Source of the DNA: Candidatus Nanopelagicales bacterium
Lineage (GTDB): Bacteria; Actinomycetota; Actinomycetes; S36-B12; JBBQYX01
DNA length: 64,000 bases
Assembly: GCA_038208295.1 (NCBI GenBank)
Contig: JBBQYX010000004.1
Coordinates: forward strand, 7,966 to 71,965
Direction: 5' to 3'
Below, piece after piece: positions 45,398 through 54,275 of this stretch (the first letter of the stretch is position 1; every line of letters starts with the position of its first letter). The notes below the pieces were generated by a model. That model was not told the origin of the DNA and searched no databases. It saw nothing but the letters and a program-made list of their open reading frames with translations. A program made the translations under genes and the position numbers.

Positions 45398-46918
45398 ATG
45401 AGCGTGCATCGCGTGATGGGCATCGAGACCGAGTACGGGGTGTCCGTGCCGGGTCATCCGCATGTCAACGCCATGCTGACGTCCTCGCGGGTGGTCAACG
45501 CCTACGCCATGGCGACCCTGGGGGAGCGGCGCAGCAAACCGCGGTGGAGTTATGACGAGGAGACCCCGCTGCGCGACGCCCGGGGCTACGACATGACGCG
45601 GGCAGAGGCCGACCCCACCCAGCTGACCGACGAGGACCTCGGCCTGGCCAACCTCATCCTGACCAACGGCGCCCGGCTATACGTCGACCACGCCCACCCG
45701 GAGTTCTCCTCCCCGGAGGTCACCAACCCGCGCGATGCGCTGCTTTGGGACCGCGCCGGTATGGCAATCATGGCGCGGGCGGCCGAGCTGGCGTCGGCGG
45801 TGCCAGGCAGTCAGCCGATCCAGCTGTACAAGAACAACACCGACAACAAGGGTGCCTCGTACGGCTGCCACGAGAACTACCTGATGCGCCGGGAGACCCC
45901 ATTCGGCGACATCGTGCGGCACCTGACGCCGTTCTTCGTCTCCCGCCAGGTGATCGCCGGGGCCGGCCGGGTCGGCCGCGGGCAGGACGGGCGTGGGCAG
46001 GGCTTCCAGCTGTCGCAGCGCGCAGACTTCTTCGAGGTTGAGGTGGGCCTGGAGACCACCCTGAAACGCCCCATCATCAACACCCGGGACGAGCCACACG
46101 CCGACCCGGAGCGTTACCGACGACTCCATGTGATCGTCGGTGACGCCAACCTGGCGGAGCTGTCCACCTATCTCAAACTTGGCACCACCTCCCTGGTCCT
46201 TGCGATGATCGAAGAGGGAGCCCTCGACGTCGACTGGATGCCGGAACGCCCCGTCCACGAGATGCATGCGGTCTCCCACGACCCCGACCTGGTGCACCAG
46301 ATCCGGCTGCGGTCGGGTAGATCCCTGACTGCGGTGGAACTGCAGTGGGAATACTGCGAGCAGGCCCGCAAGTTCGTCGACGACCGGACCGGAGCCGACA
46401 CCGACGCCCAGACCGTCGATGTCCTGGCCCGGTGGGAGTCGGTGCTGTCCCGGTTGGAGTCCGATCCCGACTCCCTCGTCGGGGAGCTGGACTGGGTGGC
46501 CAAGCGGTCGATGCTGGAGGGCTACCGCCGGCGGGACAACCTGAGTTGGGATGCGCCACGGCTGCAGCTGGTCGATTTGCAGTATTCCGATGTCCGGCCC
46601 GACAAGGGCCTGTCACAGCGGCTGGAACAGCGGGGCAGCCTGACGCGGCTGACGACCGAGGACGAGGTTCGGCACGCGATCGAACGACCACCGACGGACA
46701 CCCGCGCCTACTTCCGGGGCGAGTGCCTGCGCCGCTATGGCGAGTCGGTGGCTGCCGCCTCCTGGGACTCAGTGATCTTCGACGTGGCCGGACACGATGC
46801 CCTGCAACGGGTTCCCACCCTCGAACCGACCCGGGGCACGCGCGCCCACGTGGGAGCCCTGCTGGACTCCTGCGACACCGCCGACGACCTCGTCCGGGCG
46901 TTGACCGCCGCCCGCTGA
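45398..46918 (+). CDS. dop: Pup deamidase/depupylase Dop
   Basis: I set the start at ATG 45398 ([15 protein letters not shown]). It contains [25 protein letters not shown], and [25 protein letters not shown], which is shared with PafA. Confidence 0.95.
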
Positions 46919-46924
46919 GGCGCT

Positions 46925-47146
46925 TCAGCGGGGAGGATTCGACTCCAGGCGCAGCGCCAGCGCTGGGCAGGCGGCCACGGCGCGCTCGGCCAGGCCGGAC
47001 AGATCCGATGGAACAGACCCGGCGATGACCGGGTAGCCCCAGTCATCCAGGGTGATCAACTCGGGTAGAAGTTCCTCGCACAGGCCGTGGGCCTTGCAGC
47101 GCAACCAGTCCACCACCAGCCGGCGGTCCGTGCTGGGTTCGGTCAT
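46925..47146 (-). CDS. Small single-cluster ferredoxin (CxxHxxC...CP type, likely [3Fe-4S])
   Basis: I set the start at the internal ATG 47146, giving 73 aa. It contains VDWLRCKAHGLCEELLPE ... AVAACPALAL. It is the last gene of the minus-strand redox operon. Confidence 0.75.
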   Translation of the reverse strand: MTEPSTDRRLVVDWLRCKAHGLCEELLPELITLDDWGYPVIAGSVPSDLSGLAERAVAACPALALRLESNPPR

Positions 47147-47150
47147 CGAG

Positions 47151-48485
47151 CTACCTCCAGTCCATGGCGGCACCCAGCGCGACAGACGGCACCCGCAGCG
47201 CCCCGGAATGCCGAGCCGCCGAGCAGGGGTGGCCGGCGGCATGCGCCACAACGTCGGTGGCAGTCAGATCCAGTGCGCTGCGGACGGTCCGCACCACACC
47301 GCCCGGATGGTGACAGGCGCCGCGACCCACGACCAGGCCGCACCAGCGAGCCACGTCGGCCAGTGTGTCGTCGTTGCCTCGCCCGGCAGCCAATGCGGCC
47401 AGCCCCACGGCGATCGCCGGCAGGCCGTTCAGGCACGGTCCGCACTGCCGGGCGCTCTCCCCGGCCATCCAATGCGCGATCCGTGCGGTCTCGCTCAGGA
47501 CACAGGTGCCCGGCGGTACGCAGGCCAGCAGGCCGACGCCGAGGGCGGCCCCACCCGATCCGCGGCGCGGTGACGCCAGCGAGATGGTCCCGACCGTCTC
47601 CGTTGACAGCCAGGTCCCGGCGTACCCGCCGACGAGCACCGCACCCACCTGCTCCGGCGTCGCCCCGGCCGCCGCGAGCGCATCCCCGGCACGCGCGTCG
47701 GTGGGTGCCTCCACCACGGTGGTCGACCCATCGGGTGCGATCACCGTGAGCAGTCGGGTCCCCGGATCGTGCTCGGCGCCGACCCCGGCGAACCACTCCG
47801 GCCCGTACCGGGCGATCAGCCCGGCATGGGCGTACGTCTCCGCGTTGGACAGCAATGTGGGGCGGCCGTCGACACCGCGCTCGTCTGGTCGCGGCCGCGG
47901 GCCGGTCGGCAGCGCTTGACCACCGGACAGGAACCGTACGACCGCGCCGGCCTCGCCGGAGACGTAACGGTCGGGCACCTCCTCGACCCGGACTGCCACG
48001 CCAGGGTGGTCGACCTGCTCCCGCTCCTGCAGGGCCGCCGTGAGGCTGCTGCGGGCGGCGTCGTCACCGCGGTGCACGACCACGACGATCTCGCGGGCCC
48101 GCACCGCCACGGCGCACGCTTGCGCACCGTCCAAAACCACGTGGGGTACGTGAGCCAGCAGCGCGGCGTCCTTGCGGGACAGCGGCTCACCCTCGCTGGC
48201 GTTGACCACGACGATCGGGCGTCGGCGGCGCTGCGCCACCGCGGCCACCTTCAGACCGAACGGGAACGCCGCCCCACCGCGACCGAGCAGACCGCTGGCC
48301 GACAGCGCGGCGATCAGCGCGGGGGTGCCGCGGCCGCGACGATGAGGCGGCAACGAGCCGTGCCGAGCCTCGTGCGCCGCCAGATCCACCCTGCCGCGGC
48401 CCTGAACCCCGTCCAACAGCCGCGGCTGCCCGACCCACGCCAACCGCCAGGTGTCTGTTCCAGGGTGGGTCACGGACGCTGTCAT
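47151..48485 (-). CDS. NuoF-like flavoprotein (NADH-quinone oxidoreductase subunit F-type; SLBB and Fe-S binding regions)
   Basis: I set the start at ATG 48485, which overlaps the upstream stop (ATGA). GLLGRGGAAFPFGLK matches GRGGAGFPTG.K. VVVNASEGEPLSRKDAALL, YVSGEAGAVV, ESARQCGPCLNG and GACHHPGG follow the order of NuoF motifs. Confidence 0.8.
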   Translation of the reverse strand: MTASVTHPGTDTWRLAWVGQPRLLDGVQGRGRVDLAAHEARHGSLPPHRRGRGTPALIAALSASGLLGRGGAAFPFGLKVAAVAQRRRRPIVVVNASEGEPLSRKDAALLAHVPHVVLDGAQACAVAVRAREIVVVVHRGDDAARSSLTAALQEREQVDHPGVAVRVEEVPDRYVSGEAGAVVRFLSGGQALPTGPRPRPDERGVDGRPTLLSNAETYAHAGLIARYGPEWFAGVGAEHDPGTRLLTVIAPDGSTTVVEAPTDARAGDALAAAGATPEQVGAVLVGGYAGTWLSTETVGTISLASPRRGSGGAALGVGLLACVPPGTCVLSETARIAHWMAGESARQCGPCLNGLPAIAVGLAALAAGRGNDDTLADVARWCGLVVGRGACHHPGGVVRTVRSALDLTATDVVAHAAGHPCSAARHSGALRVPSVALGAAMDWR

Positions 48486-49204
48486 TGCTGCGCCGCCACA
48501 GTCGCAGCAGGCGCGGGCGGCGTACCCGCCTTCTTCGACCAGCCGGGTGCGAACGGGCCCTGCACCGCCCACAAGGTCGCCAACGTCGGCAGCAGGGCCA
48601 GACCGACCAGGGCGAGGACGAGGGTCGGGCGGGGCAGGCCGGGCAGCACCACCAGCCGGGCTGCGGTGGCGGCCACCACCAGGACGACACAGACCAGCGT
48701 GACGATCTGGAACGCGGCATTGCGGACGTCGGTGCCGGTACCGAGCCCGTGCAGCACCGCGATGGCCCAGGCCGGGTAGGTCAGCGCGTGCGTGGCGCGC
48801 CAGGCCCGCTCGCTCAGCCGGGGACGCAGCGCCGTGGTGATCATCGCGGCAATGATGAGGTCCACCGCCAGGGTGCCCAGGCCCAGCCACACCGTCCGGT
48901 ACGGGGACAGGAACGGCACCACCGAATCGAGCCACGAGATGTCGACAAAGGAGTCCAGCACTGCGGTGACGATGTGCACCACCAGCAGACTCAAGGTCAT
49001 CAGGGCCAGCTTGCGGTGCAGCTCGTTCGTCACGAAAACCGGCATCCGGAACGGCAGTGCGCGCACCGATGACCCGATCCCGAGCATCACCACCACAGTG
49101 AGCTGGACGAGCAAAACGATGCCGGTGGCCCGGTTGAGCCACCACAGCGTCTGCGACGGCAACTCCAGCCCGGCCGCTGCGACTGCCAGTGTTGCGGGGG
49201 TCAT
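48482..49204 (-). CDS. Ferric-reductase-like (FRD/MsrQ-like) di-haem transmembrane protein
   Basis: 240 aa with about 6 TM helices. Two His pairs lie inside helices (H-x14-H in HRKLALMTLSLLVVH, H-x13-H in HALTYPAWAIAVLH). A GAGGAGAG RBS lies upstream. Confidence 0.75.
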   Translation of the reverse strand: MTPATLAVAAAGLELPSQTLWWLNRATGIVLLVQLTVVVMLGIGSSVRALPFRMPVFVTNELHRKLALMTLSLLVVHIVTAVLDSFVDISWLDSVVPFLSPYRTVWLGLGTLAVDLIIAAMITTALRPRLSERAWRATHALTYPAWAIAVLHGLGTGTDVRNAAFQIVTLVCVVLVVAATAARLVVLPGLPRPTLVLALVGLALLPTLATLWAVQGPFAPGWSKKAGTPPAPAATVAAQQ

Positions 49205-49505
49205 TCACTCTCCTCGTGCGGACCGGTCAGGTGCGGCGACATCCTTACGGTTCAGGTTATGGACTCGTGATGAACCGTGTCGTGAGTGGTGGCGCGTGGT
49301 GAGGTTCGATCGTGAAATAGCGGCCTTGAGCCACCAACCGGAGTGAGCACAGTTGTGGGTCGGGCGTCCGGCCATACCTGCCTCGGGCGGCGTACCTCGT
49401 GCACGCGTTCGCTAGGAACTGGCTCGTGCTCAGCGACATGCGTGGTCAGGAACTGGTCGACGTCGGCCAGGCGCATGCCGTCCGGGACTGACCTCAAGAC
49501 CCCGC

Positions 49506-50492
49506 TCAGCACGGGGCGGGCCAGGGGTCAACGGTGACGACGGTGCCGTCGGCGGCGACCAGTCGCGCGGGTAGTCCGGCCCGGACGAGCCAGCCGCGGG
49601 CTTCGTTGCCGAGCAGGATCGCGGCGCTGGTGGCGGCGTTGGCGTCCACGCACGTGGCTCCGGCCACGGTGACCGTGCGCCACACCTCACGGGCCGGTCG
49701 GGCGGTCCGGGGATCGAGCAGGTGATGCACCTCGCGGCGCCCGGCCCCCCAGCGGCGTACGACAGTGGTGGAGGTCGCCAGCCCGCCCACCGCCAACGCG
49801 ATGCGGGCGATGGGGGCGTCCTGCGGCAACGGCTCGTGGCGTTCAGCTACCTCAACCAGGAAGCCGGGGCTGCCCTCGGGGACCCCGGCCACTGCCAGGT
49901 CACCACCCAAGCCGGCCAGGACGGGAGACCCGGTTGCCTCATACGCCGCACGCGCCGCGGCATCGCTGGCCCAGGCCTTGGCGCTGGCGCCCAGGTCGAG
50001 GATGGTGCCCGAGGGAATCTGCAGGGTGCCGGCGGCTTCGTCCAGCCGGACGGCCCGGTAATCCGGTCGGGTCGCAGCCTTGATCCGGGCGTAGCGGGGT
50101 GCACCTGCGGTTTCGGTGGCAAGTCGTACGTCGGAGATGTCCCGGTCGTAGCCGTACGCCACCAACAACCCGCCGATCGTCGGATCGATGAGGCCGCCGG
50201 TGTCACGTGCCACGTCCAGCCCGCAACGGACCAAATCCAGCATCAGCGGGCTGATCTCAACCGGTCGGCCTTCGGCCGTATTGACCGCGGCCAGTTCGGA
50301 ATCCGGCCGGAACCTGCTGGCGGCCTTATCGACTGCGGCCGTCACCTGGGCCATGGCCGCGCGGGCGACCGGTAGGTCCGCCGCCCGTGTGCACACGATG
50401 GTGGCGGTGGTGGACCACAAGGGCCAGGACTGACTGACCCAGGGCAGGCAGTCGTCCAGGTTGACCGCACCGGTGGGAGCCGGCGCGGTCAT
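49506..50492 (-). CDS. apbE: FAD:protein FMN transferase (ApbE family), with no signal peptide of its own
   Basis: 328 aa from ATG 50492. It contains WSTTATIV, SRFRPDSELAAVN, GLIDPTIG, ILDLGASAKAWASD and HHLLDPRT. The first 40 aa have no hydrophobic h-region. Confidence 0.85.
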   Translation of the reverse strand: MTAPAPTGAVNLDDCLPWVSQSWPLWSTTATIVCTRAADLPVARAAMAQVTAAVDKAASRFRPDSELAAVNTAEGRPVEISPLMLDLVRCGLDVARDTGGLIDPTIGGLLVAYGYDRDISDVRLATETAGAPRYARIKAATRPDYRAVRLDEAAGTLQIPSGTILDLGASAKAWASDAAARAAYEATGSPVLAGLGGDLAVAGVPEGSPGFLVEVAERHEPLPQDAPIARIALAVGGLATSTTVVRRWGAGRREVHHLLDPRTARPAREVWRTVTVAGATCVDANAATSAAILLGNEARGWLVRAGLPARLVAADGTVVTVDPWPAPC

Positions 50493-51190
50493 CACGAGCC
50501 GGACGTCTTGGGGGGTGCAGGGGCTGGAGCCGGGGCCGCCTTCGGTGGCGGCGGCGGAGCCGGCGCGGCCTTCGGCGGGGGCGGGGGTGCCGGTGCGGCC
50601 TTGGGCGGTGCGGGCGCTGGCTTCGGGGCCGGTTTGGCGGCTGGCTTCGGGGCCGGTTTGGCGGCTGGCTTGGCGGCCGGTTTGGCGGCCGGCTTGGGCG
50701 CTGCCTTCGTGGCCGGCTTGGGCGCTGCCTTCGTGGCTGGTTTGGCGGCTGGTTTGGCGGCTGGTTGGGCGGCCGGCTTGGGGGTGCTCTTCGTGGCGGA
50801 CCGCGCGGGCGATGACTTCACCACGGCTTGCTGAGTCGCCTTGCCCGGCGCCGGCTGGGATGCCTTGGTGCCCGCAACGACCGGTGGTTTGGTCGGGGCC
50901 ACCGCGGCGGCTGCCGCTGGCGCCTGCGGGGCGGCTGGCTGCTTGACCGCGGCAGGAGCCTTGGCCGGGGCCGCCGGCACCGCGACCTCGGCGGTGGTCG
51001 GCACCGCAACGGCGGGGTCGGGGACGATCACCGACGCGGCGGCGTCCGCGACGGTCGCTTCCGTGCTCGGCGCAGCCAGCGCTGCGGTGACGATCCCGGT
51101 AGCTGCGACGGTCCCCACCGTGGCAGCGGCCGTCAGGATGTCGACCGTACGGGTGCCGACGTTGCGGCGTCGGGTGGCTCCGGAACGCAT
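50492..51190 (-). CDS. Tat-signal/anchor protein with a long Pro/Ala/Lys-rich repeat region and no other domain (possibly the detached N-terminus of ApbE)
   Basis: 232 aa. It has RRRNVG plus the hydrophobic stretch ILTAAATVGTVAATGIVTAALAAP, then (AAKPA/APKPA)n and PPPPK repeats. Its stop overlaps the apbE ATG (TGATG). Confidence 0.6.
   Translation of the reverse strand: MRSGATRRRNVGTRTVDILTAAATVGTVAATGIVTAALAAPSTEATVADAAASVIVPDPAVAVPTTAEVAVPAAPAKAPAAVKQPAAPQAPAAAAAVAPTKPPVVAGTKASQPAPGKATQQAVVKSSPARSATKSTPKPAAQPAAKPAAKPATKAAPKPATKAAPKPAAKPAAKPAAKPAPKPAAKPAPKPAPAPPKAAPAPPPPPKAAPAPPPPPKAAPAPAPAPPKTSGS
50520..50790. repeat. Low-complexity 15/30-nt coding repeats (GGCGGCYGGYTTGGC-like) encoding the PAK-rich tract
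   Basis: Read directly from the sequence: repeated gcggctggtttggcg / gccggcttgggcgctgccttcgtg units. Confidence 0.75.
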
Positions 51191-51579
51191 ACTGTCCCCT
51201 CCAGTTCGCAGCGCCGGTCTCTGCCCGGTGCCTTTGCCCTACGACCAGGGCTCTCGCCCGCCCAGGTTTGCGCACGAGCGCACTCCGTGACGGTGCCTTT
51301 CGACCCGCGTGATCCACACCGGGGAAACCCCGACCCGCGGTGCGTGCGTGCCTAACCCTGCCCGATCAGCCGCTAAGCCCATCGTGGGCCGGCGGCTAAG
51401 CCGTCGATAATGTGCCCGTCAGCGCCCCGTACGGAATGCCGTGGGCCGACCATCCCCCGCCCGCCGGCCCCGGCCCCTCGGCAGCACAGTGCACGACTAG
51501 GTCAGGCGGATAGGGTCGAGTGTCACATCCGGCGAGCCCGGTCCACCATCCGCGCGATTCGTAGCCGAAGGAGATCCGC

Positions 51580-51789
51580 ATGGCAGTCCGAGACGCCGGC
51601 GACCAGCAGCGCGCCAGCCGGGCGACCGAGGAAGCGGCCGAGACCACGACCGAGACGGCCGGGGATCTCGCCGCGCGCAAAGAGCAATTGGATTCCGACG
51701 TCGACGCGATTCTCGACGAGATCGACGATGTCCTCGAGGAGAACGCCGAGGACTTCGTGAAGTCCTTTGTGCAGAAGGGTGGGGAGTGA
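51580..51789 (+). CDS. pup: Prokaryotic ubiquitin-like protein Pup (C-terminal GGE)
   Basis: 69 aa. It contains [30 protein letters not shown], and a GAAGGAG RBS lies upstream. Confidence 0.97.
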
Positions 51790-51865
51790 CCCGGTGGTCG
51801 ACGGTGGGGGTACGTACGCGGTCCGCGGATCACTCGGTATCGGAGCGGGCGGGCGACCGGCCCGA

Positions 51866-52729
51866 ATGGGGGACGGCCTGCCCGCGGCCTTCCGGCGTCC
51901 CGGATCCAGTTCGTTCTGCGAGTTGCTCGCCGAGCATGATCCGGGACTTCTGCCGGGCACGCGATGGGGCGACATGCTGACCGCGGGGTCGCGCGACGAG
52001 CACATCCTGGCGCCGCACGGGACGACCATCGTCGCGGCGACCTATCCCGGTGGCGTGGTCATGGCGGGCGACCGGCGGGCCACCATGGGCAACATCATCG
52101 CCCAGCGGGACATTGAGAAGGTGTTCGCGGCCGACGAGCACTCCTGCGTCGGGATCGCCGGCACCGCCGGGATCGCCGTCGAACTCGTCCGGCTGTTCCA
52201 GGTGGAGCTGGAGCACTACGAGAAGATCGAGGGCTTGCCGCTGTCCATGGACGGCAAGGCCAACCGGCTGTCCACGCTGCTGCGCGGCAACCTCGGCCTG
52301 GCGATGCAGGGGCTGGCCGCGGTCCCGCTGTTCGCCGGCTACGACCTGGCCCGGGAGACCGGGCGAATCTTCTCCTATGACGTCACTGGCGGCCGCTACG
52401 AGGAGCATTCCTGGCATTCGGTGGGTTCAGGATCGATGTTCGCCCGGGGTGCGCTGAAGAAGCTGTACCGCCCCGACCTGAGCGCGACGGACACCGTGGT
52501 GGTCACCCTGGAGGCGCTGTACGACGCCGCCGATGACGACTCGGCGACCGGCGGTCCGGATTTGGCCCGGCGGATTTACCCGGTCGTGCTGGTCGTCGAT
52601 GCCGATGGGGTACGCCGGTTGCCCGATGCCGAACTCGAGCCCCTGGTCCGCGAGGTGGTGGCCGGTCGGCTGGCCCGCCCCGACGGCCCGGTGGCCCTGC
52701 CGCGTACCGTCCCGGAGGCCTCGGCATGA
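51866..52729 (+). CDS. prcB: 20S proteasome beta subunit PrcB (with propeptide)
   Basis: It contains [27 protein letters not shown] ... [38 protein letters not shown] chose the ATG at 51866 because GC3 drops upstream of it. An alternative GTG at 51794 has a GGGGAG RBS. Confidence 0.9.
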
Positions 52730-53625: not shown

Positions 53626-53883
53626 ATGAAACGCATCACGGTGAGCTTGCCGGACGAGTTGGTGGACAGGATCAAGCGGGCGGCTGGCGGTGACGGACAG
53701 GTCAGTTCTTACGTCGCCACGGCACTAGCGGAATACCAGGAGCAGGAGAGCTTGGACGAGCTGTTGGCGGCTTGGCGGGCTGAGTCACCGGTCCCGGACG
53801 AGGTGCGCCAGCAGGTCGAGGCCGAGTTGAACGACGTCGGACTGACTGGTCCCGTCAGGCGACGGTCACGGGCCGCTGGGTGA
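53626..53883 (+). CDS. vapB: Ribbon-helix-helix (CopG/VapB-like) antitoxin
   Basis: 85 aa. MKRITVSLPDELVDRIKRAA is a classic RHH N-terminus. The gene overlaps the PIN gene by 4 nt. Confidence 0.85.
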   Translation: MKRITVSLPDELVDRIKRAAGGDGQVSSYVATALAEYQEQESLDELLAAWRAESPVPDEVRQQVEAELNDVGLTGPVRRRSRAAG

Positions 53884-54275
53884 CGATGCCGGCAACGGTC
53901 GGACTCACCCTGGACACCGGAGCTCTCCTGGCTCTCGATCACCCGAGCAAGGCCGTCGTCATGCAGGCCCGGTTGGACCAGGCGCGGCGTCGCGGCGCGG
54001 CGATCTGCGTTCCCGCCGGAGTCGTCGCGCAGGCATGGCGTGGGCCGCGGCAGGTCCGCATGGCTCGGTTGCTCAAGTCGTCCGACGTCGACATCGTGCT
54101 CATGACCCTGAGCGTGGCCCGAGCAGTGGGCGTCATCTGCGCCACCACAGGTCACACCGACGTGGTCGACGTCCATGTCGCACTGTGCGCCCGAGACCGT
54201 CACCACGCGGTGGTCACCAGCGATCCCGACGACATCGCTCGCATCGACCCCACGTTGCGGCTGATTCGCGCCTGA
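53880..54275 (+). CDS. vapC: PIN-domain toxin (VapC-like ribonuclease)
   Basis: 131 aa. It has LTLDTGALLAL (first acidic residue), DVVDVHVALCA and VVTSDPDDIARI (distal acidic residues) in PIN order. Confidence 0.8.
   Translation: MTMPATVGLTLDTGALLALDHPSKAVVMQARLDQARRRGAAICVPAGVVAQAWRGPRQVRMARLLKSSDVDIVLMTLSVARAVGVICATTGHTDVVDVHVALCARDRHHAVVTSDPDDIARIDPTLRLIRA

Follow-up and report, generated by a model that had tools for sequence, protein, structure and literature searches.

Between dop and pup, in a 64,000-nucleotide stretch of Candidatus Nanopelagicales bacterium contig JBBQYX010000004.1 (hereafter the window, numbered from its first letter), lie five minus-strand genes that raise two questions: what do their products do together, and does their position tie them to the Pup–proteasome system? 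An earlier note on this DNA had named the five products as a ferredoxin, a NuoF-like NAD(P)H flavoprotein, a ferric-reductase-domain (FRD)-like membrane protein, an ApbE-family FAD:protein FMN transferase (FAD, flavin adenine dinucleotide; FMN, flavin mononucleotide) and a PAK-rich protein, here called X. The number and placement of the genes agree with the open reading frame (ORF) listing, the sequence and Pfam, and Pfam profile searches bear out the domain calls for four of the five proteins, X having no match. We consider it moderately probable that the whole is best explained as a cytoplasm-to-envelope electron module, fitted with a flavin-bearing tail on X, whose synteny with dop and pup is inherited. 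Protein X is probably an ApbE substrate, and its gene the overlooked first gene of the cassette, because its tail matches the core of the ApbE motif and its gene lies directly upstream of, and is coupled to, that of ApbE.

The case for X begins at its C terminus. ApbE attaches FMN to the last Ser or Thr of D-x-x-[S/T]-G-A-[S/T], a minimal motif of 7 residues; flavinylation tags of this kind perform best at a protein terminus, and an Ala in place of the Asp makes little difference (PMC12052999). The ORF ending at the ApbE start terminates in [ST]G[GA][ST] in 30 of 33 distinct loci, the internal frequency of this tetrapeptide within the same X proteins being 0.5%. Most of the tails read S-G-G-S and about 9% read S-G-A-S. 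An Asp six residues before the acceptor (position −7) is present in only two of the 33 X proteins, those of loci L060 and L092, both of which bear the full canonical D-x-x-[ST]-G-A-S. The tail lies at the extreme C terminus whether ApbE starts 1 nt inside the X gene or up to 10 nt downstream of it, and X adjoins ApbE even where the pair is detached from the FRD, NuoF-like and ferredoxin genes (L014, L020 and L088).

The 33-locus set was chosen using the motif; an independent test of the tail was provided by a profile search restricted to the N terminus of X. This profile, which comprises 50 N-terminal positions only, was searched against 1.84 billion representatives at E ≤ 0.001 and matched 1,074 of them. 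Among the best 150 of these 1,074 matches, 102 terminate exactly in [ST]G[GA][ST] (90 SGGS, 9 SGAS and 2 TGGS), and many of the remainder appear truncated or frame-shifted. Two matches were checked for genomic context, and both lie within the same cassette. A word-based search with the X N terminus gave no matches, and the X proteins of L004 and L012 are absent, as called proteins, from the protein collection. Ten family members belong to no Pfam family; in NCBIfam the only match among them is a weak, far-sub-threshold one of member P0171 to EntC.

Translation of the ORF upstream of ApbE at each locus revealed a common architecture: an Arg-rich N terminus, one hydrophobic helix, a linker and the C-terminal tetrapeptide. 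The linker is of low complexity, rich in Ser, Ala, Pro, Thr and Gly, and practically without Cys or aromatic residues. Conservation in X is confined to the anchor and the tail. In the window, X has an Arg-rich N terminus, a single hydrophobic helix at approximately residues 18–40 and a Pro/Ala/Lys-rich disordered linker that ends in ...P-K-T-S-G-S; its N terminus can be aligned with those of 29 other X proteins, whose consensus is R-D-x-G-L-R-R-V-S-x-x-T-R-W. The description of X as anchored by the twin-arginine translocation (Tat) pathway finds little support in the sequence, in which RRR and then N-V-G-T-R precede the helix with no F-L-K-like continuation. The family stretch L-R-R-V-S-x-x-T-R-W likewise lacks the hydrophobic F-L positions of S/T-R-R-x-F-L-K and is a poor Tat motif. 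We treat X as having an Arg-rich, N-in signal anchor.

A tail that coincides with the start of the next gene could have other origins. X and ApbE might be one gene, encoding a signal anchor, a linker and ApbE, that a frameshift or an assembly error in the C-rich repeat has split. ApbE enzymes usually have a signal peptide or lipobox and that of the window has neither, its frame is open upstream, and the junction falls in a low-complexity stretch that is uncovered by short-read contigs. However, more than 30 independent loci, and the gene calls of several assemblies, show two separate genes, X closing in a stop codon immediately behind the tail and ApbE beginning between 1 nt ahead of that point and 10 nt beyond it; the 102 proteins of 150 that end at the same tetrapeptide were called independently; and at 70% G+C a frame can be expected to stay open upstream. 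Given a stop codon conserved across dozens of independent loci and gene calls, a frameshift-split ApbE is exceedingly improbable and was rejected. Also rejected was the tail as a mere by-product of a Shine–Dalgarno sequence: different synonymous codons are used for its Gly and Ser, only three loci contain GGAGG, and ApbE starts at varying distances from it.

The earlier note had seen no flavinylation target in the cassette. This statement stands for folded domains, as FMN_bind has no match on the five window proteins or in the gene-called cassettes of relatives, but it overlooks X, which, with its C-terminal [ST]-G-[GA]-[ST] tail, is the likely target. Flavinylation appears likely across the X family. 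For the copy of X in the window it is uncertain, with the chances level at most. We further judge it a finely balanced matter whether X and its more than 1,000 relatives act as natural, domain-less flavin tags that would receive FMN on the last residue in the cytoplasm, have their tails translocated and then swing within or span the wall, taking electrons from the outer haem of a split NOX-like chain made up of the NuoF-like protein, the ferredoxin and the FRD-like protein.

Several observations weigh against the flavinylation of X. The usual family tail is S-G-G-S and not the canonical S-G-A-[ST], mostly without Asp at −6. In the window, X ends in T-S-G-S, so that its tail falls one residue short of that of the family and the core [S/T]-G-A-[S/T] is not present, and in the closest relative, L004, it ends in G-S-G-S and is likewise shortened. 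The X protein of L021 (2380–2640), a member of the clade of cassettes that sit at dop and pup, ends in ...T-S-P-S-K-V; it has lost the tail, and the ApbE beside it is intact. Other members of this clade (L007, L008, L013 and L026) end in SGGS or TGGS. Taken together, the missing tail of L021, the GSGS of L004 and the TSGS of the window suggest drift of the tag within part of the clade. Short-read (Logan) contigs break in the repeat at 50436–50540 and leave the X/ApbE junction unspanned, so the T-S-G-S end of the window protein is without independent confirmation. In addition, Asn285 of the window ApbE aligns with a conserved Asp, that of A-D-A-W-D-T in Escherichia coli ApbE. The N-in/C-out topology of X is predicted solely from its charge distribution, and, paired with an ApbE that has no signal, it demands that flavinylation precede export.

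Much of this would suit an X that is not flavinylated at all and that serves as an anchor or spacer, or as a docking partner of the FRD complex or of the leaderless ApbE. In that case the tail would be a binding epitope, a processing signal or the site of another modification, perhaps decaying in the window, and the true target would lie elsewhere. The absence of a flavin-binding fold that could shield the cofactor also speaks for such a role. By contrast, the tail is the core of the sole motif that ApbE is known to use and stands at the terminus, where short tags work best; no other gene is coupled to ApbE as tightly as X; the proteins of L060 and L092 carry the complete motif; and no gene-called cassette offers an FMN_bind protein in its stead. 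An unflavinylated X is therefore unlikely in our assessment, although it deserves to be taken seriously, and X as the probable ApbE substrate is the reading that we carry forward. There is a precedent for such a site: an unstructured C-terminal extension of FMN_red proteins is demonstrably flavinylated (Huang et al. 2024, bioRxiv 10.1101/2024.03.13.584918).

The enzyme itself is recognizable as an ApbE. It matches 13 solved ApbE structures with E values from 4e-17 to 1e-9 and scores below the NCBIfam equivalog cut-off (50.5 versus 498 bits), and a C-x-D-A-N motif, the Asn of which is Asn285 in the window protein, is conserved across the cassette subfamily. In each of the 38 cassette ApbEs, 10–25 residues precede the first core strand, and sequence inspection of the window ApbE and 37 homologues revealed no hydrophobic N-terminal segment, signal peptide or lipobox. 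Because ApbE has no export signal and the charge distribution of X predicts an N-in/C-out orientation, flavinylation would probably take place in the cytoplasm, where FAD is available, ahead of translocation of the tail, a sequence of events that we offer as speculation.

How electrons might reach such a flavin is suggested by the three remaining proteins. The earlier note had proposed a conduit from NAD(P)H to flavin and iron–sulfur (Fe–S) centres, to ferredoxin and to trans-membrane haems, and, judged by domains and conserved residues, this is the best reading. A comparison of 32 homologues shows no variation in the FMN and NADH motifs of the NuoF-like protein, which aligns with Thermus thermophilus Nqo1 (E 2.5e-34). 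It is a paralogue and not NuoF itself, since its score of 151.6 bits falls far below the TIGR01959 cut-off of 558.65. Its conserved residues include C328, C348, C351, C391, C421, H393 and H415; three canonical Cys of the N3 cluster are kept, and C328, C421 and the two His are additional invariant positions. One feature weighs against the conduit: the N3 motif reads E-S-A-R-Q-C-G-P-C where that of Nqo1 reads E-S-C-G-K-C-T-P-C, the first Cys being replaced by Ala. At the C terminus of this protein (window 47151–47165), most homologues finish, after a variable linker, in a conserved acidic-Trp-basic tripeptide (D-W-R or D-W-T).

The ferredoxin carries the CxxHxxC...CP motif ascribed to it, as C-K-A-H-G-L-C...C-P; the motif is kept in 69 of 84 homologues and the His in 71 of 84. 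Ferredoxins of the CXX?XXC(X)nCP type have been isolated as [3Fe-4S] proteins, those containing His having comparatively positive potentials (PMC6237146). The two intramembrane His pairs claimed for the FRD-like protein are H63/H77 and H139/H152, conserved in 31–33 of 33 homologues, spaced 13–14 residues apart and located on two transmembrane helices. Its AlphaFold model has six helices with a predicted local distance difference test score (pLDDT) of 87.2 and a predicted template modelling score (pTM) of 0.81. The top Foldseek matches of this model are STEAP2, STEAP1, SpNOX and NOX5, with probabilities of 0.97–1.0, template modelling scores of only 0.43–0.49 and a best E of 0.045. The protein is presumed to be a bis-haem b carrier.

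Together, these features outline a path. NAD(P)H would be oxidised at the FMN of the NuoF-like protein, as its conserved motifs suggest, and the Fe–S cluster of this protein would pass electrons to the small ferredoxin, a carrier that, judging from its motif and the literature, would be of the [3Fe-4S] type. The His pairs and the predicted fold of the FRD-like protein are consistent with onward transfer from an inner to an outer haem b. Outside, the acceptor would be FMN bound covalently to the last Ser or Thr of X, where, as the motif and the gene coupling suggest, the adjacent ApbE would have placed it. The tethered flavin is probably the exit point toward extracellular or wall-associated acceptors, because no dedicated terminal reductase is conserved beside the cassette across the loci; none had been visible to the earlier note in the window either.

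Does the position of the cassette add anything to this picture? NuoF-like homologues were collected from protein and genome data, and a metagenome scan with the NuoF-like family alignment added 80 loci, for a total of about 90; a single-protein query of genome contigs gave three loci, one of them relevant. The FRD, NuoF-like and ferredoxin genes occur together in nearly all of the approximately 90 loci according to the tblastn map, and this triad co-occurs with ApbE, for the most part directly upstream, in most of them. Homologues of the NuoF-like protein that are closest to that of the window (64, 51, 50 and 47% identity) also lie between dop and pup, in the same five-gene order and orientation. 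More distant homologues lie away from dop and pup, for example in a 3.1-Mb genome, in Streptacidiphilus sp. and in an Acidimicrobiaceae metagenome-assembled genome (MAG), where genes for an OmpR-type response regulator and a HAMP histidine kinase adjoin the cassette. Apart from the window, dop or pup is adjacent only in L004–L010, L013, L015, L021, L026 and L034, among which L004 is labelled Candidatus Nanopelagicales bacterium and L007 Actinomycetes bacterium. A maximum-likelihood tree was built from 88 NuoF-like proteins, for which 55 distinct loci have enough flanking sequence to be informative. The 9 distinct rows linked to dop or pup form one clade (SH-aLRT, the Shimodaira–Hasegawa-like approximate likelihood ratio test, 99) with a single change of state, and 46 rows are unlinked. 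The linkage to dop and pup that the earlier note had considered unusual is thereby largely reduced to one lineage, 46 of the 55 loci lying elsewhere.

The cassette is an autonomous and widespread actinobacterial module. Because a single change on the tree accounts for all 9 linked rows, its position between dop and pup looks like the outcome of an insertion that happened once, in an ancestor of a Nanopelagicales-like lineage of uncultured Actinomycetes, and that its descendants have inherited, and not like evidence of coupling to pupylation. An actual functional tie to the Pup–proteasome system might take the form of a redox or iron-stress response in which the divergent region co-regulates the cassette with pup-prcBA, or of pupylation acting on the Lys-rich tail of X. 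The arrangement in which the ferredoxin-to-X genes point towards dop, with pup diverging from X, is kept in 9 distinct and deeply diverged sequences (NuoF-like identity 46–64%), which possibly reflects selection and speaks against inheritance alone. Repeated TTAGSC elements of the divergent region also recur in members of the clade, and the X linkers of the clade (window, L004, L007, L008, L013 and L026) are longer, with a mean of 146 versus 75 residues in other clades, and richer in Lys, with 8.1% versus 1.7% elsewhere (p = 0.0009, in what is a single phylogenetic contrast). However, as the linked loci represent one clade and one change, the differences in Lys content and length are a single phylogenetic event. 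The 46 informative loci away from dop and pup, those of Streptacidiphilus and the Acidimicrobiaceae MAG included, typically have the cassette beside a two-component system; the Pup locus tolerates insertions (vapBC here, another gene in L013); and no paper joining ApbE with pupylation was found in the literature searched. We thus regard a functional tie to pupylation as improbable and retain a single inherited insertion as the explanation of the position. The location in the pupylation locus would then be a lineage-specific legacy, from which, by itself, no link between redox chemistry and pupylation should be read.

The coordinates of the features discussed here and below are given in Table 1.

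Table 1. Features of the window and of recurring neighbours in related loci (strand as given for the window; L numbers denote loci other than the window, with their own numbering)
Feature	Locus	Position	Strand	Evidence or remark
dop (Pup deamidase/depupylase)	Window	45398–46918	+	Pfam Pup_ligase, E 3e-187; tblastn map; convergent with the cassette
Ferredoxin, 73 aa	Window	46925–47146	−	Pfam Fer4_15, E 5e-12
NuoF-like NAD(P)H flavoprotein, 444 aa	Window	47151–48485	−	Complex1_51K, E 2e-30; NADH_4Fe-4S (PF10589), E 2e-12
FRD-like (MsrQ/NOX/STEAP-like) membrane protein, 240 aa, six helices	Window	48482–49204	−	PF01794, 33.1 bits versus cut-off 28
Non-coding spacer between apbE and the FRD gene, 300 nt	Window	49205–49505	−	ORF listing and sequence
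ApbE-family FAD:protein FMN transferase, 328 aa	Window	49506–50492	−	Pfam ApbE, E 2e-45, 155.6 bits
Protein X, 232 aa	Window	50492–51190	−	No Pfam or NCBIfam match
Last four codons of X, ACG TCC GGC TCG (T-S-G-S)	Window	50495–50506	−	Stop TGA at 50494–50492
Three same-strand (C/G)TTAG(C/G)(C/G) copies in the X–pup divergent region	Window	51350–51400	−	Candidate operator
pup, divergent from X, product ending in G-G-E	Window	51580–51789	+	Pfam Pup, E 1e-25
Two-component system	L011	2682–4936		
Two-component system	L012	3665–5737		
Two-component system	L004	12452–14573		
Two-component system	L095	1595–3988		
Multi-pass membrane protein	L011	5294–5767		
Multi-pass membrane protein	L012	9659–10279		
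Multi-pass membrane protein	L095	4249–5004		
Multi-pass membrane protein	L078	961–1671		
Multi-pass membrane protein	L085	4107–4799		

Coupling between the genes is close at three of the four junctions. The stop codon of X overlaps the start of ApbE in GTGATGA (50495–50489), and the ATGA overlap of the FRD and NuoF-like genes (48485–48482) and the 4-nt spacer between the NuoF-like and ferredoxin genes (47150–47147) are present as the earlier note had described them. The fourth junction, between apbE and the FRD gene, is a 300-nt gap that does not occur in relatives, where the two genes abut or overlap; the FRD gene has its own ribosome-binding site, AGGAGAG. Because of this gap and the separate ribosome-binding site, the five genes may form two transcription units. 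Scans for sigma-70 and terminator consensus sequences that included the gap found no promoter-like site and one terminator-like site, where 1.0 would be expected by chance. In folding, the gap does not surpass shuffled sequence (z = +1.28), and Rfam has no match in window positions 46500–52000, which include it. The window derives from a sediment metagenome; its sequence was matched in only four sediment-metagenome DNA runs, and RNA runs with a match numbered zero.

Upstream of X, in the region shared with pup, the three copies of (C/G)TTAG(C/G)(C/G) are spaced 23 and 21 nt apart. Pairs of the repeat with an 11-nt spacing, which is typical of sites for winged-helix (OmpR-type) regulators, lie upstream of X in L004 (~5421), L007 (~2218), L008 (~5738), L026 (~234) and L022 (~4251). 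CTTAGC is 19-fold enriched upstream of X, and CTTAGCS is not over-represented over the whole window, with 4 matches versus 3.9 expected. On the strength only of their clustering and their recurrence in relatives, the TTAGSC repeats are a candidate operator; on the window alone the candidate is a weak one.

Genes for an OmpR-type response regulator and for a histidine kinase of the HAMP/HisKA type lie next to the cassette in about 22–27 loci, upstream of X or downstream of the ferredoxin gene, and no such two-component system is encoded within the 64 kb of the window. At least 10 loci encode, immediately before X or after the ferredoxin gene, a multi-pass membrane protein of 160–250 residues that has conserved His residues and no Pfam match; the window lacks it. 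Besides the two-component system and this protein, only Pirin (9 loci) and a major facilitator superfamily (MFS) transporter (7 loci) recur beside the cassette.

Two further features of the Pup locus were observed. Pup ends in G-G-E rather than in G-G-Q and would not need deamidation before ligation; dop is nonetheless retained at full length. Between prcA and pafA, at 53626–54275 of the window, a small ORF resembling ribbon–helix–helix (RHH) proteins and a PIN-like ORF form a vapBC-type pair, which constitutes a second insertion in the Pup–proteasome locus; in L013, another unrelated gene lies between prcA and pafA.

Gene clusters of this general kind have been recorded before. Meheust et al. 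2021 (eLife, PMC8238504) reported, on bioinformatic grounds only, MsrQ-like flavinylation-associated clusters, 31 of them with a NuoF-like protein. These clusters are mostly from Actinobacteria, and the authors propose that NAD(P)H in the cytosol supplies the electrons for extracytosolic transfer (PMC8238504). With a PF01794 protein, apbE (two genes apart here) and a PF10589 protein, the cassette of the window falls under the operational definition of their NuoF-like subtype. The gene combination has therefore already been noted bioinformatically and is not undescribed (PMC8238504). By contrast, the published clusters ‘typically’ contain a gene for an FMN-binding domain, the place of which is taken in the window by the domain-less X with its tail motif. 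The paper does not mention the ferredoxin, X, a signal-less ApbE or dop and pup, and the word ‘proteasome’ occurs in it 0 times (PMC8238504). In the literature searched, we found no published description of a tail-tag ApbE substrate and no paper joining flavinylation, ApbE, C-terminal and intrinsically disordered.

ApbE-dependent flavinylation is, to our knowledge, known only on folded flavin-binding domains and engineered tags. If our reading is true, the large natural X family would add a new class to the known ApbE substrates, and its members would exemplify a new design by which Actinobacteria transfer electrons out of the cytosol. The passage of electrons through the thick wall of Gram-positive actinobacteria could then be modelled simply, by a terminal tag, apparently the only functional element of these proteins, on a disordered tether.

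The flavin-based extracellular electron transfer system of Listeria monocytogenes, which comprises FmnB, PplA, Ndh2 and EetA/B, resembles the proposed module in that an ApbE-family enzyme puts FMN on a membrane-tethered surface protein and electrons of the cytoplasmic NADH pool reach outside acceptors. However, PplA is a lipoprotein with folded FMN_bind domains, FmnB is exported, a quinone pool takes the place of the ferric-reductase-type haem protein, and there is no NuoF-like protein or ferredoxin. The nearest likenesses to the tail of X are the Flavin-tag (Tong et al. 2021, reviewed in PMC12052999) and the extensions of FMN_red proteins, in which a short unstructured terminal peptide suffices for attachment of FMN to the last Ser or Thr. 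The former is synthetic and reads D-x-x-S-G-A-T, whereas the tail of X is usually S-G-G-S, and in FMN_red proteins a flavin-binding fold receives the tethered flavin, whereas X has no fold.

The electron-carrying proteins can be compared with their relatives in the same manner. NOX, STEAP and MsrQ have a six-helix core with two His pairs for two stacked b haems that carry electrons across the membrane, and the FRD-like protein shares the His pairs and is predicted to share the core. NOX and STEAP have their own fused dehydrogenase domain, of the FAD/NADPH or F420 type, whereas in the cassette this part appears to be split into the NuoF-like protein and the ferredoxin. MsrQ receives electrons from quinol or Fre and serves MsrP, whereas the cassette has no MsrP-like partner. 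The NuoF-like protein, finally, shares with NuoF/Nqo1 of complex I an FMN/NADH-binding domain followed by a C-terminal Fe–S domain; it differs in the replaced first N3 Cys and in its gene neighbours, which are not NuoE and NuoG but the ferredoxin and the FRD-like protein.

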